Of a stretch of 64,000 nucleotides of DNA, positions 4,725-63,977 are shown piece by piece. The number at the start of each line of letters is the position of its first letter. Position 1 is the first letter of the stretch. The DNA is from a virus, in the IMG/VR virus record IMGVR_UViG_3300045988_102364; one strand, 5' to 3'. The translations under genes were made by a program, and so were the position numbers. A model generated the notes under the pieces. That model saw only the letters and a program-made list of their open reading frames with translations. It searched no databases and had not been told where the DNA came from.

Positions 4725-4775
4725 GGCGCGAATTGCCTATCTTTGTGCTATTATTAATCAAAAAAATATAAGCAC

Positions 4776-5054: not shown

Positions 5055-6156
5055 GATAGATATAAGAAGGATATTCAAGACCTCTAAACAGGTTATGGAA
5101 GAGGCGTATGAGAATATCTTGAAATACAGGCGGGGAGAGCTTATCCCCGCTAAAACCGGATACGATTATATTGATGAGGCTTTGCTTGGAGGTATTTTTC
5201 CTCAGCATGCTATTGCCATAGGAGCCCGCCCGTCTGTAGGTAAATCGTATGTGGCCCAAAAGATATTGGAAAATGTGATGAATCCGATGATTAACCCGCA
5301 AGCAGAAGATTATTTTCTTGTCAATTGCGAGTTCGAAATGAATCCTCAAGATCTTCTTCTTCGCAGAATGAGCCAGGATATGAAAAAACGGGCTCCTGAA
5401 ATATTAAGAAGGCAAGATTCTAATACAGTAGAAGAGATGAGGATGTTTGAAATCCTTCAAGGTGAAATCAGAAATAATATAATATACATCGATGCTCCGT
5501 GTACGGTAAAAGAGTTTGAGGCGGCTGTGTATCATATAGCGACCAAACACAAAGACAAACGTCTTATAATATTTAAAGTCGATCATATTGCTTTGATAAA
5601 AAGAATGGGATTGGATCCTAAGTCGGCTATAGATGATTTGGTGGCGGTTATGAACGAGGCTAAATTAGTATATAAAAACATATTTTTCCTCATCATATCC
5701 CAATTCAACAGAGAGATAGAAGGAAGGATAAAAAGCCCCCAAGAGCAGCCTCCCCGTCTTTCTGACTTTTATCAGTCTGATACGCTGGGTCAGTTATGTA
5801 CGTTAATGATAGGTTTGCATAATCCTCGTAGATACGGGCTGGATAAGTATATGATATTTGGGAAAGATTGGTATCAGACTCTTGATAGGTTTAAAACCGA
5901 AAACAAAACATCATTCAGGACAGCCGGACTGGTGTTTCATCATATACTGAAGGTAAGGCAAGTTAGTATGGAAGAGCTTACTAATACAATCCACCCAGAG
6001 ATCCTGCCGGGGCATGGATGGATGTACGGGGAGGGCGGGACGAAGTTCGTGAACCCCAACCAGCCGCCGACGCCGCCCAAGCTCTATACTGTGGAAGACG
6101 TTACGGACAATCAGGAACAAGAACAAGAGGTAAAGGAAGAACAGTCATTGTATTAA
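5023..6156 (+). CDS. DnaB-like replicative helicase / RecA-fold ATPase
   Basis: Walker A IAIGARPSVGKSY matches the DnaB-type GARPxMGKT; Walker B-like IIFKVDHIALI; 377 aa. Confidence 0.6.
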   Translation: MTKMHEEIANRIDIRRIFKTSKQVMEEAYENILKYRRGELIPAKTGYDYIDEALLGGIFPQHAIAIGARPSVGKSYVAQKILENVMNPMINPQAEDYFLVNCEFEMNPQDLLLRRMSQDMKKRAPEILRRQDSNTVEEMRMFEILQGEIRNNIIYIDAPCTVKEFEAAVYHIATKHKDKRLIIFKVDHIALIKRMGLDPKSAIDDLVAVMNEAKLVYKNIFFLIISQFNREIEGRIKSPQEQPPRLSDFYQSDTLGQLCTLMIGLHNPRRYGLDKYMIFGKDWYQTLDRFKTENKTSFRTAGLVFHHILKVRQVSMEELTNTIHPEILPGHGWMYGEGGTKFVNPNQPPTPPKLYTVEDVTDNQEQEQEVKEEQSLY

Positions 6157-6171
6157 AAAAAAATAAGAACC

Positions 6172-8438: not shown

Positions 8439-8469
8439 TTTTTTTATCAACAATTAAATTTTAAAAGTT

Positions 8470-13993: not shown

Positions 13994-14346
13994 ACAACAA
14001 GAGAAGAAAAAAAATATCGGATGTTATTAACAACGTAAATAAGTATAAAACGGATTTTGAATACATCAAATCAAAGTTGTCGGAGTTGAAGTGCAACATA
14101 AATTCAGCCAAAGATGATGTTGATATGATTTTAGACGAAGAGACTGAGGCGAGAGATAATATACCGGAATCGTTACAAGACTCAGAAAGATATTGGGAGT
14201 CAGATCAGGCTGTAACTGATATGGAGGAGGTGGTTGATGACATGGAAAGTATTATAAATGATATAGATGATGTGATTTCGACCATAGATGGGAGCATTAA
14301 AACCATAAATGGTTCTATTAAAGTAAATTTGGAAGGAATAATATAA
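13990..14346 (+). CDS. hypothetical acidic protein
   Basis: 118 aa, D/E-rich. Confidence 0.3.
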   Translation: MNNKRRKKISDVINNVNKYKTDFEYIKSKLSELKCNINSAKDDVDMILDEETEARDNIPESLQDSERYWESDQAVTDMEEVVDDMESIINDIDDVISTIDGSIKTINGSIKVNLEGII

Positions 14347-15013: not shown

Positions 15014-15571
15014 ATGGAAAAGATGGACAATAATACTAAAAACATCCTTTATCCAAAAGGATCTATTTTTCGCATGTTGGAAAGTGATGTAATCAGTTCC
15101 GAATTAGAAATAGCCAGAGGAGCTATAGTGGAGGCAGTATCAGACATAGAGGTAGATGATGAATATGCTGAGGTTTGTTGCAATGGAGAGACGTTTATCA
15201 TAGGAACGGACATTATGGGTATTATTCCTGTCAAAGTATCCAGAGAAAACAAATCGGTGAAAAATGACATCATTGACGATAAACTACGATGGGATTTGCT
15301 TCCGATGGAAGAAATTGAGGACATTGTAAAAGTCTATCATGCTGGAGCCAAGAAATATGGGCCTAATAATTGGCAGAATCTTGACAACGGCTTTGAACGG
15401 TATCGCGCGGCAATGTTTAGACACCTGATAGAATACATGAAAGGAGAAAGAGTGGATTCTGATACAGGATGTTTTCATCTTGCACAATGTGCATGGAATT
15501 GTATAGCTATGCTGTGGTATGATAAGCACGGGAAAGGATTAATACCATTAAATAAGGAGGAAAAGAAATGA
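15014..15571 (+). CDS. possible dATP/dGTP diphosphohydrolase-domain (DUF5664-like) protein
   Basis: KVYHAGAKKYGPNNWQN...ERYRAAMFRHL resembles the phage dGTP/dATP pyrophosphohydrolase N-terminal domain; recalled from memory only. Confidence 0.3.
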   Translation: MEKMDNNTKNILYPKGSIFRMLESDVISSELEIARGAIVEAVSDIEVDDEYAEVCCNGETFIIGTDIMGIIPVKVSRENKSVKNDIIDDKLRWDLLPMEEIEDIVKVYHAGAKKYGPNNWQNLDNGFERYRAAMFRHLIEYMKGERVDSDTGCFHLAQCAWNCIAMLWYDKHGKGLIPLNKEEKK

Positions 15572-15876
15572 CAATAGAACAACTAAATTATTTATTAAGA
15601 AAAGAGCTTTATGCTATAAAAAAACATAAAGACAATATTGATAGAATCAAAAAAGAATACTTTGATTCCAATTATGGGTTAAAAGAAGGAGATAAGATCC
15701 GTATTTTACACGAAACAGGAGATGAAATGATAGGCTTCTTGAAAAAAGTTGAAGTATGTGAAGACGGAGATCTGTACTTGACAATCCAAAAACAAAACGA
15801 AAAAGGTGATAGAGGCAGAGGAAAATGGAATATGTATCTATCATCAAAATTAATTAAAATTGAAAAATGTGTATAA
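15568..15876 (+). CDS. hypothetical protein
   Basis: 102-aa ORF preceded by AGGAGG. Confidence 0.3.
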   Translation: MTIEQLNYLLRKELYAIKKHKDNIDRIKKEYFDSNYGLKEGDKIRILHETGDEMIGFLKKVEVCEDGDLYLTIQKQNEKGDRGRGKWNMYLSSKLIKIEKCV

Positions 15877-17060
15877 TGCCATGAGAGTGTTAAGTTTATT
15901 TGACGGAATGTCATGTGGTCAAATAGCGTTAAAAGAAGTAGGGATCACACCTGAAGTATATTATGCATCAGAAATAGATAAGTTTGCTATTAAACAAACG
16001 CAATTAAATTTCCCTAATACGATACAAGTAGGAGATGTAAGGGATTTGAATGTAGAAGATCTTGGACACATAGATCTTATTTTAGCCGGCAGCCCATGTA
16101 CAGATATGTCCTTTTCTGGAAAAAGAAAAGGGTTGTCTACCGTAGAAGGAATAGAAATCAAATCACTTGATGAGTATCTTGAATTAAAAAAAACAAGGAT
16201 TTGAATTTGCCGGTCAGTCTTACTTATTCTGGGAGTTTATTCGTATTTTGAATGATGTAAGAAAAACTAATCCTGATGTGTTGTTTCTTCTTGAGAACGT
16301 TAAGATGGGAAAGAAATGGGAGCCGGTATTCGATGATGCTATAGGGTGTAAAGGCAATCATATTAATTCAGCACTTGTTTCCGCTCAAACCAGGAAACGT
16401 ATTTATTGGACTAATATTCAAGGCGGCATTATCCCTCAGCCTAAAGACGAGGGTTTGACCATAAGTGATATAGAGGAATATGAAGTAGATGAAAAATATT
16501 ACTTATCTGAAAAAGTTTTAAACAATTTAGCTTTTCACTTGAAAAGAAATCACGACAAGGGGAATTATTATGGAGCTAATATTAAAACAAAAGATGAAAA
16601 ATCCAATACTGTTACCGTAAAGGGTAAATACACGTACGATCTTATTTGTGTAGCAATGAGAGGTAGGAATCCAGAAAAACCTACATGTAGAGAATCTGGT
16701 CTTAAAACAGTTCAGATGATTGAATTTAAAAACGATGGAAAATCCAATTGTCTCACAACAGTTCAGAAAGATAATCTTATTTTCCAAATACCAAGAGGAT
16801 TTAACAAAGGTGGATTTCATGAAGATAAGACTCCAACATTATCTTGTAATTCATATGATAGAAACAATTTTATCATACAGAGAACATTACATGGCGATTT
16901 CAGAATAAGAAGATTAACCCCTACAGAGTGCTCCAGGTTACAGACTGTACCAGATTGGTATAAATGGGAATGCAGCGAAACCCAACAGTACAAGATGTTG
17001 GGAAACGGGTGGACTATTAAAGTTATTGAACATATACTTAAAAGAATAAAAGAATCATGA
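15860..17060 (+). CDS. DNA (cytosine-5)-methyltransferase, interrupted by a frameshift in an A8 tract (possible pseudogene or phase-variable gene)
   Basis: Motif I LFDGMSCG and motif IV GSPCTDMS in frame A (15860-16204). After the A8 run at 16186-16193 the other frame continues with QGFEFAGQSYLFWEFIRIL...LFLLENV (motifs V/VI/VIII) and QYKMLGNGW (motif X). Confidence 0.75.
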
Positions 17061-18852: not shown

Positions 18853-18979
18853 TTTCAGAAAAAATTAAACCTACATAATCTTTCAAGTAAGAACAAAAAA
18901 ACGTACAATCTACTCTTTGACGATGCTAATATAACATATTGGAATCATACAAAAACAATGCAAGTCCGATATTCTTCGT

Positions 18980-21900
18980 CTATTTGTAACTAACGTCATC
19001 GTCTCCTTCCGAATCAGGAGTAGCGCCGATGAAGAACATCATTGACTTGTTGTTTGTCTGCTGCCACCAATTATAGGCGCGCGCTACGTCTTCCGGCGTC
19101 TTGATATTATACCATTGTTTGATAAACGTCTGTTTGGCGAGTTGCCTAAATAGCTTAGACTCTCCTTTGTATGTACCGGATGTTACTTTATCAAGTGAAT
19201 AATTCCTAAGATCGGTAAGATCCTTCAGCTTCCTTCCCATAACAAACGGGTCGTTAATGATATCTACAACGTTAAGCTCCATAATAAACGGCATCTGTGA
19301 AGCTATTTCGTTTATGGTTCTGAATCCAACGTAAGATCCAAATTGAGTAAGCCAACTTTCTTCGTTTTCATCATCATCACGCCATCCGGCAAGAAGCATG
19401 GATACGGCTTGCATGATAAGGAACGTGCCGGCATAGACACTGAGGCGTTTGAGATTAGTTTTTTCTACCTCATTCATATTGTCTTTATTTTCGTTCCAGG
19501 CATCTATGATGTTTTTCATACCAGACTCGGAAGCCAGGCTAAATGTTTTGGCTATCATATTCTTTAACGTAATTGACAACCCTTCCTCTTCTTGCATTGT
19601 TTGGAAATTGAAGCCACGTCTTTTCCACAGACGTTGAGCCGCCAGCACCAACCATCCTCGGTGGGCGGTCATGAACCTGGCTATCCAGTTGCGCGATGCG
19701 GCAGTTCGGTTTTCTTCATTCAAAGATCCGTTACATATCTGCGACAAGCTACGGACTTGATTCCTGGTTATAGCCATCTGGGTTTCAACTTCCTCAACAG
19801 TAACACCCGATCCTGGCTTTACAACCACCTTCCCATCCACGACGTCTACCATACTCCATAAAGTACGATCTTTTAATGCATTCCATTCTCTTTTTATGGT
19901 ACTCTGTTCTTTATTGCGTTCTTTTTCCATCTTGAAATCTTGGAACGTGTAGAACCGACCTTTGTAATAACGAACATTGTCCATAGTAGCAATCATAACC
20001 TGCGGATCAAGAGGGTAGTTCAGGATTTCCATAAAAGCATACATAGGTGAACGCATTAAGGTCCTGGCCACTCTATTGTATCCGGCACCATACATACGAT
20101 TTCGGATATTGAATATCCCCATTCTCTCACCTATGACATATAATTTGCTTTTCCTATCTATGTCTCCGGTTTCTGCTATACAAGATGGAGCAAGGCGTGA
20201 AAATTCAGCCGATGCGTATTTAAGGGAATCTTTACTTATATACTGTCCTACGGCAGATTCCATGATGAGGTTGATATGACCTGTTAAGGCGCCGGTAGCT
20301 GCCACAAACGGGGACAGTGCCAAGTTCATGACCGACATAAATCTTTCAACAGCCATCATAATTCTTGTAAGGTCTACCGTATATCCTCCGATGTTCACCG
20401 TAAGTTTTTTGGTGTTCATCCTAATGCCATAATAATGATCGTTGAAGAAGTCCCTGAACATCTGATATGCTTGGGTTGCTTCAGCCTTTTTACCACCTTC
20501 AAATTGTTTATTCAGTAACATCTGCTCCAGTCCTTGAGCGAGCTCTATAGACTTCTGCTTTTCGTTGTATAACGATGACTGCATCATAAGCATCGAATAA
20601 GAGTAGCCAAAATCGTGAGATACATCATCCTGGTTCTCCAATTCATATATGTAGTATTTAGGTATAGACCTAAGTCTGTCTTCCGGATCATACACTTCTC
20701 CTTGCCTGGTCTTACCATATAGAGAATCGTCTACTCTGTCCAGGCACAGATCTGATACAAAATTACGAACCGTATTTTTGAAGTTAATACCCAATCCTTC
20801 TATACGTTCTATGTCTTGTTTTGATATCTGTGGAATAGCATACAGGTTCGGGCTCTGCTCTTTGTATAGATCAAGGGATTGTCTTTTTATTTCCTTGAGT
20901 TTTTGAATCATATTCCACTGCTCTACATTTTTAGTAGCAACCTCATTACCGTCAACATCATACTTGATGCCAAAGTCATTGAAATACGATTCATCACGAT
21001 ACAGGCTTTTCTTAGGCATTCGATGACCATACCCATGATCTTTTACATAATCAGGATTACGGCCGCTATTTTCGGCTTCAGATTCAGCCACCCATGCCCT
21101 TGCAGGATCGAAAGAAAGGTACGATATATCCATGCCATAATCTTGGGTGGATGTACCGTTTTGTACGTCCTTAACCATCTGCGCCACATCTATCTCACCT
21201 CGACCGATTTTGTCGATCATAGCCGCATATCCAGTAGGCGCCATGCGTTTATAGTACGAAAAGACCTGGCTCCTGGCAAATTCATTAACAATAGCATTGG
21301 CCTCTTCTATGCCCGCTTTTATGTCAGCTTCTATACCCTCTTCTCTTGTATTATTTAAAAACAAGCTGGCCATCTTAGCATTAACAGCATTCCTAAAATC
21401 TCTACCGTCTAATTCTTTGCTTATACCAAGCTTTTCTGACAGGTAGTTGGTTTCAGATACGGTAAACAGATATCGGTTATCAGCAGCCTTAAACAGCTTA
21501 TCCCTTAAAGCCTGAATCCTTTTTGCTTTCTTCGCCGTAGTATGACGTTGTACGAACTTCCATTCCACTTCCTTGGAGTCAGCAAGAGCATTTAAATAAG
21601 ACTGATTTACTTCGTTTTCAGCCTTATTGCTTTTAGTAAGGTACTTATCAATATCTTCAAGACCCACCATCTTAGCATAATCTATCAAAATAGCGTAATC
21701 GGCTTCAATAGCTTCAGATGCGGCCCTAAAAGCATCTCTTTCGGATGAGGTAAATGTTGCTTCGTTAATTTCTCCGATATCAGCCACATCGCGATTGTTT
21801 CCGATTATTTCCTTGATAATAGCCTTATTTTTTTCTATATCTTTCACAATAGAATCCACGTCAGTCGCATCTCTATCGCTTGTCGTAGAACTAATGATAT

Positions 21901-56277: not shown

Positions 56278-57030
56278 TTATTTATATTTCATGTAACGAA
56301 GTATTATGATACCGGAACCGCCTGCGCCAGAATAGCATCCTCCTGAGACATTGGAACCACTTATATAAAAAGAACCTCCTCCTGAGCCCGTATTGGGTTT
56401 CCCATTAGTAGGGTTGCCTAACGATCCTCCCCCTATACCTATTCCTCCTCCTCCTTGTGACGATCCGGAGCTATATTCTCCGCCCCCTCCACCACCTCCG
56501 GCGTACAATTTATTATTGAACGGACATCTGGTAGTACTCCCTTGACCGATCCCAGGCATATCACCTGCTCCATTAGAACCATCACTTCCACCAATATATC
56601 CTGCTGTCTTTTCTTCAGGTCTTCCACTACCACCACCTGATCCCCCATCGCCCCCTCTTCCGGAATATCGACCTCCATTTCCGCCAAGAGCTTTTATTGA
56701 ATTAGATTTAAACCAGGACTCTGACCCTGGAAGACCATTCTTCTGATCATCGTAAGCAGACATCGAAACTACACGATCTCCCCCTTTCCCTATTGAATAG
56801 CTAACAACACTTTCTGGAGTAACAGGCACATCAAGATATGTTTTAACATACCCCGATCCGCCCCCTCCACCACCTCTTTCAGGGCCTGACGATGCACCAG
56901 AGCCACCGCCACCAACAATGAATACATCAACAAATTTACAACCAGCTGGCACCATCCATGTACCGGATGATTTTAACTCTTCCACAACTTCTACCAATTC
57001 TCTCTTTCCCATCATCACCCTTCTCCTCAT
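56278..57030 (-). CDS. glycine-rich structural protein (possible fibre/appendage component)
   Basis: 250 aa with long GGGGSG / GGGGGG runs after a short N-terminal domain. Confidence 0.45.
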   Translation of the reverse strand: MRRRVMMGKRELVEVVEELKSSGTWMVPAGCKFVDVFIVGGGGSGASSGPERGGGGGGSGYVKTYLDVPVTPESVVSYSIGKGGDRVVSMSAYDDQKNGLPGSESWFKSNSIKALGGNGGRYSGRGGDGGSGGGSGRPEEKTAGYIGGSDGSNGAGDMPGIGQGSTTRCPFNNKLYAGGGGGGGEYSSGSSQGGGGIGIGGGSLGNPTNGKPNTGSGGGSFYISGSNVSGGCYSGAGGSGIIILRYMKYK

Positions 57031-57080
57031 CTCTCACCTCCTTTCATTATACTCTCATGACAATTATCCCATGTTCTTTT

Positions 57081-57190
57081 TTTTTCAGTGATAGACCTGT
57101 GGCTTTTCCGGCTGGCGGTTCGACGCTTGTTTTCTCCGATTGCCAGCCGGATAAAATCACTTATGAAAAAGTTGGAGTTTACCCCCCCCC
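57081..57190. repeat. homopolymer tracts T9 (57081-57089) and C9 (57182-57190) in the 5' region of the Gly-rich gene
   Basis: Seen directly; on the coding (minus) strand they read G9 then A9, with the ATG at 57030 about 50 nt further. Confidence 0.8.
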
Positions 57191-57212: not shown

Positions 57213-60200
57213 TTATCTATTCTTAATCTTATCTTCGGAAATCAACCACTGGAATATAATTTTCCGGTTGCTAATTACTTTCTTTATCCTCATCAGCATC
57301 CAACTTCCTCTTAACCTATCCAGCCATGACCGTCTGAAATTAAGAGAATCAGGATTAACTGACTTATTTATATCGTTATCGTCCTTGATCCAAATAGGGG
57401 TTTCTGACCGGTCATCGTCAACCCTGTTGAAGAAGTCATTTAACTTATGTCTTCTATATACCTCAGTATCCAGGACCTCAGTATGGTCGCCTACGATCTT
57501 CGGATACGATATACGTTGCGCTAAATTATTCTTTTCTTCTGGAACAAGATGAATTTCACCTGAGTTGTTTGTGTCGTTGTAGATAATTATCGTATCTAAA
57601 CCTACTTTCCTGTCAAGAGTGTAATTCACATCATCGACGTATTTCCTTGCATCAAGCTCGTATTCTACAGAAGCCAGCGTAGAGCCATTATATTTCTCTT
57701 TTATCGGCACTTCTAATATAAATGGATATGTTGCTCCGTAGAATGTCTGGAAGCTCTTATTCGTCAGCAAATGACTCCATAATCCGCCTTCTTCGTCTGA
57801 TGCTGGGAAGTTTATGCCTGTCTGGAAATATTGTTGCTGTTCTATATAATAGTCAGGACAGAACGAATAATAAGAAATCCATTCTTGCTTCAGACACGAA
57901 TATCCGATAGTGAACGACACGTCTTTAAAATACTGTTCGTCTTTTAAAGATATTTCCTTATCATTTGACAACACCTCTGTTTCATTGTACAAGAACCTTC
58001 CACCATCATATTTGTAATATGCCGGGTTCTTAACAGGTATATAATCTTTTTTCGTGATAAGTACCCTCTTATACCTGTTATCCCATCCAAGAGACAGACC
58101 AAGACCGATAAATTTATTGTCTGTATCTTCTTCTGTCATCTCTGTGCCGGTTAAGATATTAGTTATTCCGTATCTAAGAATCTTAAACGGAAGATGACGC
58201 TTGAGCCAATGTCTGATACCTACACTAAGTTCCTTGAGATTACGTCCGTTCGGATCGGTCATAAACACTTGTGCTCTTTTAGTATCTACCCAGAAGTGAC
58301 CAAATTCTGAACTAATTATTTCAGTGCTCTGGGTTCCAGAATAACCGAGGTCGGTCGTGTTGTACTCCAGAGGCCGGGACGCGAACAGACCGCCGGTGCC
58401 CATCTCAGCCTGCCCCGGGGAGGTGCGCTCCTTGATTACATCTATGGCGTTATGGAGTGAAACCTGATCCTCGAACCTGACAAGAATCTGATCGGATTCA
58501 ATACGCTTCATGTGAATAAGCTTCCCGTTGCTGGTTGGAAACTCATGATAGTCCATAGGCTTGTACGTTAGCCACGGATCTGTTTGACTGTTTTCAGATA
58601 CGTCAGCCCTACTCCATATAACACCATTAGGTCGCTGGTAAGCACAATCATAAAAACGACGTTCGTATGTTGCCGGCAATACATTAGGTGTCAACGTCAT
58701 TCTTGATGAGTAGATAGGACTTATCTTGTAATCATTGTCCCTATGGATAGACACGTTCTTTTCTTGTGTCCACCAAGCAAAATCACCATGAGCCGGATAA
58801 AACCATTCATGAGGCTCTACTCCTTCTAATCGGAAATTGCAGTTTATTTCCGATTCTACGAGGAATTGAGGAATACCATAAGACCACAGATAGAATCTAC
58901 CATCCACGTATTTCTTAGCCTCGTTCTCACCATTTAAATTATACAAACTTTTTCTGTTTGGATAAAAAGAATACGTTCCTTTGCTTGATGATGTCCAGCT
59001 ATTAAAACGTTCGTTGTCAGTATGCTCAAGCATATCTTCTCCAGTATCGTAATTAACGAAATACTTGGGAAATCCGACATTTCGGTAATCATTGTAAGCA
59101 AATGGTATCATATCCCCTATACCAAAAGCAGTATTATAAAAAAATGGGAATTTCCGTTTCATGGAAAACCTCGATATGTAGGTGTCACCGCCAAACAGCG
59201 GTTGTTTCCCTCCTTGGAAGAATCCACATCCTCCGACTGATATCCATTTGATGTCTTCTATAGCTCCATACTGATCGGGCCTGTACCGCATAAGCTTCAT
59301 ATATGGAGAACAGATATAAGACAACATCTTCGTTCTTTCAAAAGATTCTTTAGATCCAGCATCAGAAGCCATGATAACAGGGTCATGGATACGACTTGTA
59401 TCATATACCTGGGCCTGCATAGGATACGATACAAGATACTTTGAATTTAAGATGCTTGTATCAGGATCCTTTTCTCCCGGATCTCCAAAAGACAAGAACA
59501 TGGAGGATTCTCTATCTATGTTATTTATAAACAAGAAATCTTTTGAAGCGTTTTGGTTATCATCACCCACATCTTCTCCAGTAACCCAAGATGATGTCGT
59601 AGACGGGTCGGATATGGGGTACATACCTGATTTAAGACTCTTGGTGTTAGCCAATCCCCTTAATCTGTTTTGTTCGTATGGAGCCGTATCATCGAAGCCC
59701 ATCATGCTATTGTAGTAACCTACAGACGTGTAATAAAAAGCATGGTTTCTTCTTGGGCCATTGTTTATGAATGTCGTGAGCCAATCATATCTATACTTAC
59801 CATACAATACCGGTCTTTTAGCAAGCGTATCAGATATGGTGGCAATCATTGAAGCGAATATCATTGCCATATTGATATTACCTATCACACCTACATACGC
59901 AGACGTAGAACGGTTCATAAGCTCTTCCGCTATCTGATAAGCTATGGTGGCCGTAGATTCGATGTTAGCCAACGTAGCCGCCATCTTATATGATTGTTTT
60001 CCTAAGATCGTCCATTTGGGATGATCTTCAACCTCATCAAAGTTTCCTACAGACATTCCCCTTATAAAACCTTCTATAGCCACCTCCGTAGGGGTTTCAG
60101 GCTTATTGAAATAAATATCAGGAGAACTAAATGCATACCACACGTTTCCTCTTCTGAAAAATGGGTGGGTTATAAACGATACCCTTTTTTCAGTTGCGTA

Positions 60201-63200
60201 ATTAAAAGAGTCATCCGATAAATCATTATACGGATAATTAGGATACAGATTAAGATTCGAGTTTTGACCGGAATACCTGTACATGTCGTAAGCTATTCCG
60301 GTGGCTATAACAGAACGATTAAGACGTCTGTCACCTCTATATATCTCATAGCCTGTAACCATATCTCGCTGCTCTTTGGTTATCAATCCGGAATCTACAG
60401 CAAAATCAAGGAAGACGTTAATCATATCCTCGTCTACTAATATTCCTATAGGATAAATATCGGAAGGAACATCATAAGACCTAACATCCCGGTTCATGAA
60501 AAGCATATGATCGTTGTCCGGGAACTTATAATGCCGGATAGGTTGTTGGCAAAAGACGGTACTGGTATCTACCGTACCATATTTATGACCTTTAAAAGAC
60601 ATCATTCCCTTGTCATCCGTAGAAGGGGAACCGTAGTATTCAGTAAGCTTGGATACGATATTGTCGTAAGCTTTCTTGGAATTGCCTTCATAACCGTGAT
60701 CACTTATCTTAACCTTACTACTGTCATACAGTTCAAAATTAGCAGGATACTTCTCAGACGATTCCCAGTAAGCGAAATCACCGTACTTGTATTTCCTTGG
60801 AGCGCAGTTTATGGGGCGATCCCCGCATATCGTACACTGGCTGGCGTATTCTACTGTGGCCCTTAACGATATTTCTTTTGCCCGTACATTTATCCTGTCT
60901 ATTTCCTTTTCTCTGATACCAAAAATATAGGGGTATATAGTTTTACCAAGGACGTAAGATGTGCCTACCAAACCTCTTGACGGTTTCTTACTGTTCTCCT
61001 CTTCTCCATCGTCTTTAACCTTACAGAAATCAATCTGTCGGACGGTAAAAATCCAAGGGCATGATACTATAGGGCAGTCTATGGCTACATACAATCCATC
61101 AGGGTACTTATCGAAGAAAGATTCGCCTATGTGCCCAAAGTAAGGACGGGATGCTCCAACAATAACATAATTATCGCCTTCATCCATAATCTTCTCCCAA
61201 TCAAAGTTGAGATCATCCTTATCTATCTTCCTATTGCTTCCTTTGTATCTTGGATCTAATGATTTCCAAAAAGAAAGACGGACATATTGTGTGGACACAG
61301 CATCCATAAGACCATCTATTTTACCCAAAGATTCCAGATAAAGAACTTTGTCCTTGGCCGGGAAATCAGGATCATCCCATTCTTTAGGTCTTGTAATATG
61401 GAGGAAACGGGCGTTACGAAGCACGCATTTCGTAAACCTCCATACCAACAACTCTGACGTAAACATCGTAGAACCTTTAACATCTTCAGGAATAAGAGCG
61501 CCTACGTTATTGTCAGCTAAATTAGCATAAGAATCCCAGGTCCATCCATCTCCGTAATCTCCTTCTGGAACGTAACCGGTATCAAGGAAATTATATGAAT
61601 AATCATCTATCTTCTTCTCTATCTCAGGCCAGGTGTCCCTTATCAAGGCTCCAGGCGCTATCCTTGACCTGTAGGCGTCGTTGTGGATAGTGCTCGAAGA
61701 ACGTCCGGCACGCCAATCTGGAAGACATCTTCCATTAAAACAAACCTTCCCCTCTTCATCTTCTTTATCGTTATTCCACACATCATTCATAAGCAGGTAT
61801 GCTCCAAGAAGTGTTGAAGATGACTGGAATGAGTTATAATCGCTTCTGGCAATAGTAGGATTAAGACAAGGCTCTTCTATAAAACATCCGCAAGTACACG
61901 GCATAGAATCCAGAACATAAATAGCTTCGGCTATAGACTGTAATATAACAGACGGTTGTAACAGAGAATCGTACACAGAACACGCCTTAGTCCCATCATC
62001 TCCCGACCAGAATCCAGCCCAATGACCGCCATCTTCGTCATCGGCAAAGAAATACTTGTCCATGAACTCTATCATCTGTTCCTGTAGTTCCCAGTTAAAT
62101 AACACAGAATACTTGTCTTGCTTTTCACCGCCGGTAGTATATAGGTAGTCGGTGGATACGTGCTCCATATCCTCAAGCTCCTTATACGTATATTCTTCAC
62201 GGAAACCCACAATACGATCTACCGGAGCTGTAATAAGCGAATACTGGCGATGCGCATCAGTACACTCGGCTCCAAACTCAGGAGCCTCGATACCATCTAT
62301 AGCTTCTTTTTGTTCCTCCGTATTATGATCGTCAGGTTCTCCGTAGCTGTTGAATATATCGCATATTTCGTTGGCAGCAGCATTATTAGGTTCTTCTGTA
62401 GCGGTATTACATGCGATGTCTTTTATATTAGATGAAAAATAATTAATCACCTCATCTATTATAATCTGACTTCTGAATGTAAAACTAACGTTCGTATAAG
62501 TTTTAAAATCATTTTGCAATGTTATAGTTTGACCGATAGTAGCCGGATTTTTACATTCTTCTTGTCCGGTTTCTTCATCATCAAAATCCTTCGGATCTCC
62601 TGCCGTATTATAATACTGCCACTTGAATTTACGCTCTTGCCCTGAACAAGGTGGAGCATATTGGTTTATGGACTTATATACCCTATCGGTATCCTTATTT
62701 TCTATTTCTGCCGCAGCATCTTTATAAGGGGGAGGTATTAACACAAATGCCGGAGTTTTATAACCGTTGGAGCACTTAAAAGAAATAGCAAACGGATACA
62801 CTTCATTTCTCATATACCCCACATACAATGAACAGGCATTACCATCCTTATACAGATCTTCGTGGGCTACCGATGCCTGCCATTGAAGGAAGTGTCCCAT
62901 GAGGGAAACTACAGGCTGTAAATTCCATTCTTTTTCCGCCGTAAGACCATATTGAAGAAGACGATTCCCGACAGCCACAATCCCCCTTGATGTGTTATAC
63001 ACAGGTTTTTTCAAGGATATGTGTTCGAATGTAGTACGTTTGTTATTAAGATCCGAATAATACAATATAGTCTTTTCTGATACAGGATGGATACCTTCTA
63101 CAAAGTAATCAACAACCGGTTGAGTTTCTCCGTTGTATCCTACTGTATTTTGAATGATAACAACCTTAAAATATTCAACTTGACGATCTATGTTAGATAC

Positions 63201-63977
63201 GACGAATCTAATACCTAAATTAGTACGTTCTCCCCATTTGCCATCTTTTTGAGTAATATACTGTTCATCGAATATAGGTACAGGATTAGTAGGATTAGAA
63301 TAACTTCCAAGCTCATTTCCAAACTCGTCACAAGGAGCCACAGTGGCCTGATAGACGCCTGAGCGCAGGCTGCCCCCGTACTCTATCTGAGCCGGCTCTA
63401 TGCACATGGGTTTGAGTAGCGGAAACACCCTAAGTTTCTCACATGCCAGAAAACAACCATTCTCCTGCATGAACTTTTTCCTATCGTATTCTTTATCGCA
63501 TATCTTATACCCATGATAATGATACCATATATCACCTTCATCATCAGGAGTCAGAGCCTTGTCTACAATAACATACCTGGGAGGATTATAATCGTCAGTC
63601 CAGTAAATACATTTTCCACATTTCTCTGTCTTTATTTCTATGGTTTTTATAGGATGGTAGATAGAGAACTTAAGGCAAGGATCTTGCTCGTTGTCTTCCA
63701 GCAAGGTCTTCATGCCAGAACACAACGACTCCGATCCTTCTACCATAGATTCTATATCGGAATCGGATAAGATACTTGTATCGGATTCAGGCTTGAAATA
63801 AGTTATTTTAGATACGCCTGTTTCAGGATTTGTTATAAAAAAATAGATATTGCCTGAAGTAAGATCATTCTTGTAACCAATAACTTTAAACCCATCGAAA
63901 TCAATGCATTTAAGATTACTATGCTCGTTAGATCTCATCCCAACATTACCATCCTCGGATTCGATGTTGGCATTCAA
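57213..63977 (-). CDS. giant virion protein (at least 2254 aa; N-terminus may extend beyond the window)
   Basis: Uninterrupted ORF rich in W/Y/N/G/D, beta-rich composition suggestive of a tail or receptor-binding structural protein. Confidence 0.5.
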   Translation of the reverse strand: MNANIESEDGNVGMRSNEHSNLKCIDFDGFKVIGYKNDLTSGNIYFFITNPETGVSKITYFKPESDTSILSDSDIESMVEGSESLCSGMKTLLEDNEQDPCLKFSIYHPIKTIEIKTEKCGKCIYWTDDYNPPRYVIVDKALTPDDEGDIWYHYHGYKICDKEYDRKKFMQENGCFLACEKLRVFPLLKPMCIEPAQIEYGGSLRSGVYQATVAPCDEFGNELGSYSNPTNPVPIFDEQYITQKDGKWGERTNLGIRFVVSNIDRQVEYFKVVIIQNTVGYNGETQPVVDYFVEGIHPVSEKTILYYSDLNNKRTTFEHISLKKPVYNTSRGIVAVGNRLLQYGLTAEKEWNLQPVVSLMGHFLQWQASVAHEDLYKDGNACSLYVGYMRNEVYPFAISFKCSNGYKTPAFVLIPPPYKDAAAEIENKDTDRVYKSINQYAPPCSGQERKFKWQYYNTAGDPKDFDDEETGQEECKNPATIGQTITLQNDFKTYTNVSFTFRSQIIIDEVINYFSSNIKDIACNTATEEPNNAAANEICDIFNSYGEPDDHNTEEQKEAIDGIEAPEFGAECTDAHRQYSLITAPVDRIVGFREEYTYKELEDMEHVSTDYLYTTGGEKQDKYSVLFNWELQEQMIEFMDKYFFADDEDGGHWAGFWSGDDGTKACSVYDSLLQPSVILQSIAEAIYVLDSMPCTCGCFIEEPCLNPTIARSDYNSFQSSSTLLGAYLLMNDVWNNDKEDEEGKVCFNGRCLPDWRAGRSSSTIHNDAYRSRIAPGALIRDTWPEIEKKIDDYSYNFLDTGYVPEGDYGDGWTWDSYANLADNNVGALIPEDVKGSTMFTSELLVWRFTKCVLRNARFLHITRPKEWDDPDFPAKDKVLYLESLGKIDGLMDAVSTQYVRLSFWKSLDPRYKGSNRKIDKDDLNFDWEKIMDEGDNYVIVGASRPYFGHIGESFFDKYPDGLYVAIDCPIVSCPWIFTVRQIDFCKVKDDGEEENSKKPSRGLVGTSYVLGKTIYPYIFGIREKEIDRINVRAKEISLRATVEYASQCTICGDRPINCAPRKYKYGDFAYWESSEKYPANFELYDSSKVKISDHGYEGNSKKAYDNIVSKLTEYYGSPSTDDKGMMSFKGHKYGTVDTSTVFCQQPIRHYKFPDNDHMLFMNRDVRSYDVPSDIYPIGILVDEDMINVFLDFAVDSGLITKEQRDMVTGYEIYRGDRRLNRSVIATGIAYDMYRYSGQNSNLNLYPNYPYNDLSDDSFNYATEKRVSFITHPFFRRGNVWYAFSSPDIYFNKPETPTEVAIEGFIRGMSVGNFDEVEDHPKWTILGKQSYKMAATLANIESTATIAYQIAEELMNRSTSAYVGVIGNINMAMIFASMIATISDTLAKRPVLYGKYRYDWLTTFINNGPRRNHAFYYTSVGYYNSMMGFDDTAPYEQNRLRGLANTKSLKSGMYPISDPSTTSSWVTGEDVGDDNQNASKDFLFINNIDRESSMFLSFGDPGEKDPDTSILNSKYLVSYPMQAQVYDTSRIHDPVIMASDAGSKESFERTKMLSYICSPYMKLMRYRPDQYGAIEDIKWISVGGCGFFQGGKQPLFGGDTYISRFSMKRKFPFFYNTAFGIGDMIPFAYNDYRNVGFPKYFVNYDTGEDMLEHTDNERFNSWTSSSKGTYSFYPNRKSLYNLNGENEAKKYVDGRFYLWSYGIPQFLVESEINCNFRLEGVEPHEWFYPAHGDFAWWTQEKNVSIHRDNDYKISPIYSSRMTLTPNVLPATYERRFYDCAYQRPNGVIWSRADVSENSQTDPWLTYKPMDYHEFPTSNGKLIHMKRIESDQILVRFEDQVSLHNAIDVIKERTSPGQAEMGTGGLFASRPLEYNTTDLGYSGTQSTEIISSEFGHFWVDTKRAQVFMTDPNGRNLKELSVGIRHWLKRHLPFKILRYGITNILTGTEMTEEDTDNKFIGLGLSLGWDNRYKRVLITKKDYIPVKNPAYYKYDGGRFLYNETEVLSNDKEISLKDEQYFKDVSFTIGYSCLKQEWISYYSFCPDYYIEQQQYFQTGINFPASDEEGGLWSHLLTNKSFQTFYGATYPFILEVPIKEKYNGSTLASVEYELDARKYVDDVNYTLDRKVGLDTIIIYNDTNNSGEIHLVPEEKNNLAQRISYPKIVGDHTEVLDTEVYRRHKLNDFFNRVDDDRSETPIWIKDDNDINKSVNPDSLNFRRSWLDRLRGSWMLMRIKKVISNRKIIFQWLISEDKIKNR

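Follow-up and report, generated by a model that had tools for sequence, protein, structure and literature searches.

A C5-cytosine DNA methyltransferase gene interrupted by a frameshift within a run of eight adenines (A8) raises the question of whether the break is a sequencing artefact, a sign of gene decay, or one state of a genetic switch. Such a gene lies on the plus strand of the 64,000-nucleotide stretch analysed here (the window), taken from the IMG/VR virus record IMGVR_UViG_3300045988_102364. The favoured answer, with a probability of about 0.6, is that the methylase is an anti-restriction gene of the phage with a slipped-strand ON/OFF polymorphism, and that the window shows its OFF state. 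The length of the run varies repeatedly among related genomes, this variation is restricted to the methylase among the coding tracts compared, the OFF alleles are otherwise intact, and the gene is under purifying selection.

The methylase gene and its two reading frames

The whole gene spans 15881..17060 (+); it is out of frame in the window and encodes 392 amino acids (aa) when the run is A7. The N-terminal frame (frame 0, 15881..16204, +) extends from ATG 15881, or an alternative TTG at 15860, to TGA 16202-16204. Its 107-aa product, MRVLSLFDGMSCG...GSPCTDMSFSGKRKG...LELKKTRI*, contains motif I (LFDGMSCG) and motif IV (GSPCTDMS). The C-terminal frame (+1, 16188..17060, +) opens after TAA 16185-16187 and closes at TGA 17058-17060. 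It carries motifs V (FEFAGQSYLFWEFIRIL), VI (LFLLENV) and VIII (QTRKR), the variable target-recognition region, and motifs IX (RRLTPTECSRLQ) and X (GNGW), and its translation reads KKQGFEFAGQSYLFWEFIRIL...LFLLENV...QTRKRIYW...RRLTPTECSRLQ...GNGW. The frameshift site is the A8 homopolymer at 16186..16193 (+), which sits in GAATT-AAAAAAAA-CAAGGAT (16180-16200). In the in-frame A7 form the same site is ttA AAA AAA Caa, encoding Leu-Lys-Lys-Gln.

The original prediction had described a methyltransferase split by this run, with motifs I and IV in frame up to 16204 and motifs V-X in another frame from 16188. Translation confirmed this arrangement and every coordinate. The single open reading frame (ORF) of about 400 aa that it expected from the loss of one A or the gain of two is also obtained: deletion of one A gives 392 aa with motifs I-X, and addition of two gives 393 aa. 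In the repaired 392-aa protein, LFDGMSCG, GSPCTDMS, LLENV, QTRKR, RRLTPTECSRLQ and GNGW follow in order along one chain, whereas the window splits the motifs across two frames. Pfam PF00145 matches the N fragment at 3.7e-17, the C fragment at 3.5e-22 and the repaired protein at 1.5e-39 (profile positions 1-323/324). The repaired protein also matches TIGR00675 dcm (5e-38, 131.5 bits, cut-off 100.65) and PHROG 116 "DNA methyltransferase" (7.8e-67). Judged by motif order and profile matches, the repaired product belongs unambiguously to the C5-cytosine DNA methyltransferase family, as a single-chain orphan enzyme of the Dcm type.

The solved structures closest to the N-terminal half are the DNMT3B/3A catalytic domains (E = 3e-18), followed by M.HhaI. 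Among solved structures, residues 1-86 of the repaired methylase, including RVLSLFDGMSCG, are nearer to mammalian DNMT3A/3B than to M.HhaI or M.HaeIII, and several relatives are labelled "DNA (cytosine-5)-methyltransferase 3A" by JGI.

Sequence comparison places the window in an epsilon crAss-like human-gut phage. Across the 2-kb methylase region it shares 94.6% DNA identity with phage crAssE-Sib (OR575929.1, 151 kb, human gut; named "csAssE-Sib" in its GenBank record). This epsilon crAss-like phage, placed in the proposed genus Epsilonunovirus, has a diversity-generating retroelement, and the paper on its genome leaves the methyltransferase unmentioned (PMC11054128). The crAssE-Sib ortholog (WOZ57332.1, DNA (cytosine-5)-methyltransferase) is intact and annotated as a single coding sequence of 375 aa. 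Pairwise alignment sets its A7 against the A8 of the window; crAssE-Sib also lacks 51 bp of the variable region.

Tract length among relatives and at control homopolymers

A scan of IMG/VR returned 79 loci, of which 46, together with crAssE-Sib, form the close relatives (at least 91% aa identity); adding the window gives 48 close alleles. The tract is A7 in 36 of them, A8 in nine (including the window), A9 in two and A10 in one. A7 and A10 are in frame (37/48 alleles), and A8 and A9 are out of frame. When the tract is reset to an in-frame length, every close allele is open from start to stop; hence, all 11 frameshifts sit in the tract. No second lesion occurs among these 11 frameshifted alleles. 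Apparent internal stops in 11 repaired relatives proved to be stop codons lying one or two codons early at the C-terminus, with real nonsense only in locus L014.

Fitch parsimony on neighbour-joining and UPGMA (unweighted pair group method with arithmetic mean) gene trees requires at least 10 tract-length changes and places A7 at the root. The window (A8) and locus L036 (A9) are identical over the 1179 nt of the gene, and the nearest A7 allele, L004, is 2 nt apart. A 4.3-kb region around the gene was compared among ten A8 loci, ten A7 loci, L036 and L004. A7, A8 and A9 all occur among genomes that differ by no more than 0.1% over this distance; an A9 genome sits 0.08% from an A8 genome, and the window is identical to the ENA contig L162, which has the same A8. 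Tract-length polymorphism thus recurs independently among near-identical genomes. One star-like cluster (≤0.1%) contains six A8 genomes, each separated by 0-4 private single-nucleotide polymorphisms from the central haplotype, which belongs to the A7 genome L172. This cluster implies either one A8-to-A7 reversion or five independent A7-to-A8 gains, and by either route the tract changes far faster than point mutations accumulate. The position of L172 amid the six A8 genomes favours, on parsimony, one reversion over five gains.

More distant relatives (about 33 examined, 50-80% aa identity) are all single ORFs across the junction, where they read ...YLELK[EKSQ][EQKG]GF.F.G.SYLFWE... and lack the A run. 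Of the 47 close relatives, 36 are continuous, as are all of these distant ones, across the exact point of the break, and the split is therefore not a chance juxtaposition. The comparison revealed no relatives that share the same split with independent starts. A census of Metagenome_contigs added nine relevant loci (8 A7, 1 A9), which probably overlap with IMG/VR.

An exact-sequence look-up of the protein haplotype of the window was carried out on contigs from NCBI, JGI, ENA and Logan. The A8 N-terminal product was found on 39 contigs as the 107-aa form and on 23 as a 114-aa form with an alternative start call. The A9-type N-terminal product (123 aa) was present on 8 contigs, the 270-aa C-terminal ORF on 51, and the repaired A7 protein (392 aa) on 48. 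These contigs come from unrelated ERR, SRR, DRR and ERZ accessions, and the ten ON and ten OFF sample accessions compared (only ten per state) showed zero overlap. The A8 (OFF) allele of the window is a real and widespread variant.

Control homopolymers were read in 21-kb loci from the same contigs as the methylase alleles. Coding runs 2-5 kb from the tract were invariant (0/88 altered): A8 at 14007, 2.2 kb upstream, in 36/36, T7 at 21828 in 40/40, and A7 at 15618 in 12/12. Intergenic runs varied. The run at 6155-6163 (A9 in the window) is A8 in 7 relatives and A9 in 18; that at 8439-8445 (T7 in the window) is T7 in 12, T8 in 13 and T9 in 2; and that at 18895 is A6 in 27, A7 in 13 and A8 in 2. 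The methylase tract departs from its modal length in 12/48 alleles, which differs from 0/36 for the upstream A8 run (Fisher p = 9e-4) and from 0/88 for all coding controls (p = 1e-6). Invariant coding runs combined with variable intergenic ones form the pattern of real slippage filtered by selection. The last of these intergenic runs lies within 18859-18901 (A6, A7) of the window, and a further one with length differences among close relatives is at 4760-4766 (A7).

The methylase gene is under purifying selection. The ratio of nonsynonymous to synonymous divergence (dN/dS) has a pairwise median of 0.19 and a mean of 0.22, and the corresponding pooled ratio for polymorphism (pN/pS) is 0.13 for the part upstream of the tract and 0.24 for the part downstream. 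The gene has also been damaged in other ways. L014 carries a nonsense mutation (W362->TAG) just before motif X. L061 (IMGVR_UViG_3300045988_105150) has an in-frame deletion of about 280 nt that joins ...GLSTVEG to SAQTRKR... and removes the tract and motifs V-VI. In three proteins (P0009, P0011 and P0016), the N-terminal 270-315 residues of the methylase are fused in frame, at three different junctions, to the C-terminal part of TnpB (PF01385/PF07282, OrfB_IS605 / Cas12f-like). These fusions look like deletions of varying extent between the methylase and a nearby TnpB element. In L174 (3772-4962), an intact TnpB gene lies two genes downstream of an intact methylase. Purifying selection together with repeated lesions indicates an enzyme that benefits the phage under some conditions and can be spared or carries a cost under others.

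Smaller in-frame changes include a 21-bp tandem duplication in L016 (QTQLNFP QTQLNFP), a 12-bp deletion in L019, and a 15-bp deletion (GFNKG) shared by L020, L021 and L044. As far as these alleles indicate, the methylase tolerates length changes outside its conserved motifs. A larger variable element is a 51-bp (17-aa) segment of the target-recognition region, MIEFKNDGKSNCLT..., at 16706..16756 (+). Flanked by 10-bp direct repeats ACAGTTCAGA at 16707-16716 and 16758-16767, this in-frame segment is present in 30 close alleles and missing from 17 and from crAssE-Sib. It resembles the repeated GK(S/T)NCLTTVQKDNLI modules, of which larger relatives, L079 among them, have as many as four copies. 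The pattern suggests that target-recognition modules may be gained and lost, as in multispecific phage methylases. Frameshifts affect more of the long alleles (10/30) than of the short ones (1/17), with a Fisher p of 0.04 that is uncorrected for phylogeny.

Competing explanations

Under the slipped-strand reading, the poly-A run (TTA AAA AAA CAA) would gain or lose A by mispairing during phage DNA replication, with length changes arising much faster than point substitutions. A7 and A10 would then give the full-length enzyme (ON), whereas A8 and A9 would end translation after motif IV and leave motifs V-X untranslated (OFF, at most leaky). Progeny would be C5-methylated or unmethylated according to the tract state. 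Methylated (ON) progeny may be protected from cognate Type II restriction in the host, and unmethylated (OFF) progeny may be invisible to methyl-dependent Type IV restriction and spared any cost that the enzyme may have. The population would keep both states, and host strains would sort them. We infer the methylation phenotype and the selective agent; the protective roles rest on what is established about orphan methyltransferases of phages and about restriction of Types II and IV. Among the options raised by the original prediction was slipped-strand variation affecting an epigenetic or anti-restriction function of the phage, and it is the one now favoured on the basis of A7-A10 lengths in near-identical relatives, the number of tract changes, frameshifted alleles free of other lesions, and purifying selection.

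Several observations weigh against this reading. Reversion rests on parsimony within a poorly resolved cluster, and tract lengths were taken from consensus assemblies. For a contingency tract of the classical kind, A7 is short. At the 39% guanine-plus-cytosine (GC) content of the window genome, Lys is expected to be encoded by AAA, and there is no indication of selection on the tract as such. With about 15% of third positions variable, three invariant synonymous third positions would arise by chance in about 60% of cases, given the diversity seen here, so that the conservation of the three tract codons lacks significance. Intergenic homopolymers show about the same amount of variation, which also fits a merely tolerated frameshift. 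The one-way lesions in L014, L061 and the TnpB fusions show that plain loss also occurs. For reversibility, parsimony and the in-frame A10 allele (L047) suggest that the tract may switch back. A stronger version of the slipped-strand reading would make the gene a true contingency locus. In it, a C5 methyltransferase of modular and possibly multispecific design would be switched reversibly by the poly-A run, and one lineage would thereby hedge between two kinds of Bacteroidales host, those with Type II restriction favouring methylated virions and those with methyl-dependent Type IV restriction favouring unmethylated ones. This version is tentative, and we place it somewhat below even odds.

The most serious rival is one-way recurrent loss, in which the gene can be dispensed with and the tract is a mutational hot spot by accident, with no meaningful reversion and no bet-hedging. 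A8 and A9 alleles would then be fresh pseudogenes, frequent and either tolerated or slowly purged in mutation-selection balance. Loss of the same gene by nonsense mutation, deletion and TnpB fusion fits this account, as do the similar variation of intergenic homopolymers and the position of OFF alleles mostly at tree tips. It stays a serious rival because the data give no sign of selection to preserve the tract itself. Set against it are dN/dS of about 0.2 on both halves, which shows that the gene is kept, the intactness of all 11 OFF alleles outside the tract, the existence of an in-frame A10 allele, and the central A7 genome L172, which favours reversion. Moreover, the OFF state of the window haplotype is as common as the ON state in consensus assemblies (about 60-70 versus 48 contigs), which is hard to square with a deleterious mutation. 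On balance, one-way loss appears unlikely but deserves to be kept in view. The recent pseudogenisation proposed by the original prediction therefore stands insofar as this copy is out of frame, but the polymorphism recurs, and the allele represents one of its states, not a gene in decay.

Under a recoding explanation, the split is only apparent or lowers the dose, and the A8 copy could still yield the full-length enzyme if RNA polymerase dropped one A or tRNA-Lys shifted +1 on A AAA AAA A. The crAss-like phages use their own RNA polymerases, and re-pairing of tRNA-Lys with the mRNA, as read from the sequence, would be perfect on the A run. The OFF state may be leaky because transcriptional slippage on A/T runs is documented and strongly polymerase-dependent, with runs of about 7 or more for bacterial RNA polymerase and far fewer for phage T7 RNA polymerase (PMC6260861). 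However, the out-of-frame arrangement is not conserved, since the frame is intact in 37/48 close alleles and in every distant relative examined. Folding of the 97 nt that follow the tract is no stronger than that of shuffled sequences (z = -0.30), and the region upstream of the tract has no Shine-Dalgarno-like (AGGAGG-like) stimulator. If the ribosome slipped by -1 on A8, it would end up in a wrong frame; the right one is restored only by a +1 or -2 shift or by loss of one A from the mRNA. At best, recoding would make OFF leaky while leaving the length polymorphism unexplained, and we regard it as improbable. An alternative code with TGA read as Trp was considered and rejected, as frame 0 is not rescued and further stops follow. 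Split C5 methyltransferases exist, and a natural two-subunit enzyme like M.AquI, assembled from two ORFs, would agree with the fact that both ORFs are open and each matches PF00145. Yet the relatives are single ORFs that do not share the split, the break falls between motifs IV and V and not in the variable region, and the +1 frame has no start codon before motif V. Its first candidates are TTG 16248, which cuts motif V, and ATG 16305, which lies past ENV. A two-subunit enzyme is accordingly very doubtful. Gene callers report C-terminal products of 260-270 aa in relatives. Apparent split orthologs in Bacteroides phages, labelled "methyltransferase (x2)" and "hypothetical protein (x2)", turned out to be neighbouring genes. 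Finally, homopolymers are the classic site of indel errors, and the original prediction had allowed for a sequencing or assembly error with a true A7. This is rejected because an error would strike coding and intergenic runs alike. The constant A8 run upstream and the other coding controls argue against it, as do the identity of the window to the independent contig L162 and the exact A8 products, which recur on about 60 contigs that differ in archive and assembler. In a comparison with its closest relatives over 21 kb, the window contains no other homopolymer frameshift inside a gene. An error here is extremely improbable.

Genomic setting and comparison with known systems

The methylase gene is located in the replication-gene block of the phage. 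It has the same position and the same neighbouring genes in the window and in crAssE-Sib, where a helicase, small ORFs and a dATP/dGTP diphosphohydrolase lie upstream and hypothetical ORFs downstream. In 16 database sequences (P0001, 496 aa), the upstream 102-aa ORF (15568..15876 in the window) is fused in frame to the methylase. The fusion reads ...IKIEKCVYVMRVLS... and implies a small change at the stop/start junction around 15874-15881.

Another variable site lies elsewhere in the window. T9 (57077-57085) and C9 (57182-57190) runs both fall in a 182-bp gap between two minus-strand ORFs, where a 2254-aa ORF (57213..63977, -) ends and one of 250 aa, rich in glycine (56278..57030, -), begins. 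Across eight relatives, the C run takes the forms C8, C9 (four times), C10, C11 and C4TC8, and both T8 and T9 occur for the T run. At 39% GC, nine consecutive C are unusual, and an inverted repeat, CCGGCTGGC...GCCAGCCGG, lies between the two runs. The gap may be a second hypervariable site, perhaps affecting expression of the downstream gene. If the methylase is a true contingency locus, its switch would act alongside the diversity-generating retroelement of the lineage and this hypervariable C8-C11 tract, and no phase-variable gene for an epigenetic or anti-restriction function would have been described from a phage before.

This phage lineage is very common in the human gut, and dozens of independent stool metagenomes are dominated by the ON form and dozens by the OFF form. 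Should the switch be functional, the methylation state of the phage would be a trait that is inherited yet can change rapidly, and with it the fate of the phage under restriction by gut Bacteroidales. "Frameshifted" methylases in viral metagenome catalogues should then not be dismissed as errors or pseudogenes, and both host-range prediction and methylation-based linking of phages to hosts would depend on tract length. Because A7, A8, A9 and A10 alleles already exist in public samples, the system is directly testable.

Orphan and multispecific C5-cytosine methyltransferases occur in the Bacillus phages SPR, phi3T, rho11s and SPbeta. As far as these enzymes can be compared by description rather than alignment, the methylase studied here is likewise phage-encoded, Dcm-type and without a partner nuclease. 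Its variable region between motifs VIII and IX also appears to be built of repeated modules (...NCLTT..., ...PTLSCNS...) that are gained and lost among relatives, as in the Bacillus phage enzymes. We know of no switch tract in the latter.

Switching itself has its closest counterpart in bacteria, where phase variation of methyltransferases is an established bet-hedging device. Bacterial phasevarions rely on repeat-driven phase-variable methyltransferases, such as Type III mod, Type I hsd and Type IIG cj0031, and homopolymer-switched methyltransferases are found in Helicobacter and Campylobacter (PMC13076061, PMC5909438, PMC4889913). As in phasevarions, a repeat within the methyltransferase ORF slips in and out of frame, and ON and OFF states are interleaved among near-identical genomes. 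Phasevarion enzymes, however, are encoded by chromosomal genes of host-adapted bacteria, are mostly N6-adenine Type I/III enzymes and act as gene regulators, whereas the phage enzyme is an orphan C5 methyltransferase whose presumed role is to protect phage DNA rather than to regulate a regulon. The tracts of phasevarions are also longer (G8 or more, or tetra- and pentanucleotide repeats) than the A7-A10 seen here. No account of a phage methyltransferase that varies in phase came up in the literature searched, an incomplete set. What looks new is the setting in a phage methylase; the mechanism itself has bacterial precedents.

On the phage side, hypermutable polyG tracts have been reported in Campylobacter phages (Sorensen et al. 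2021, Cell Rep 35:109214, as cited in PMC12823448). Hypermutable homopolymers in phages are so far known from the receptor-binding genes of these Campylobacter phages. In both cases the phage, and not the host, carries homopolymers that create ON/OFF subpopulations, and in the Campylobacter system, as the citing paper relates it, some progeny thereby escape host resistance. The same account places the polyG tracts in receptor-binding and structural genes, whereas the tract described here is polyA and lies in a DNA-modification gene. It would thus affect the restriction stage of infection rather than adsorption.

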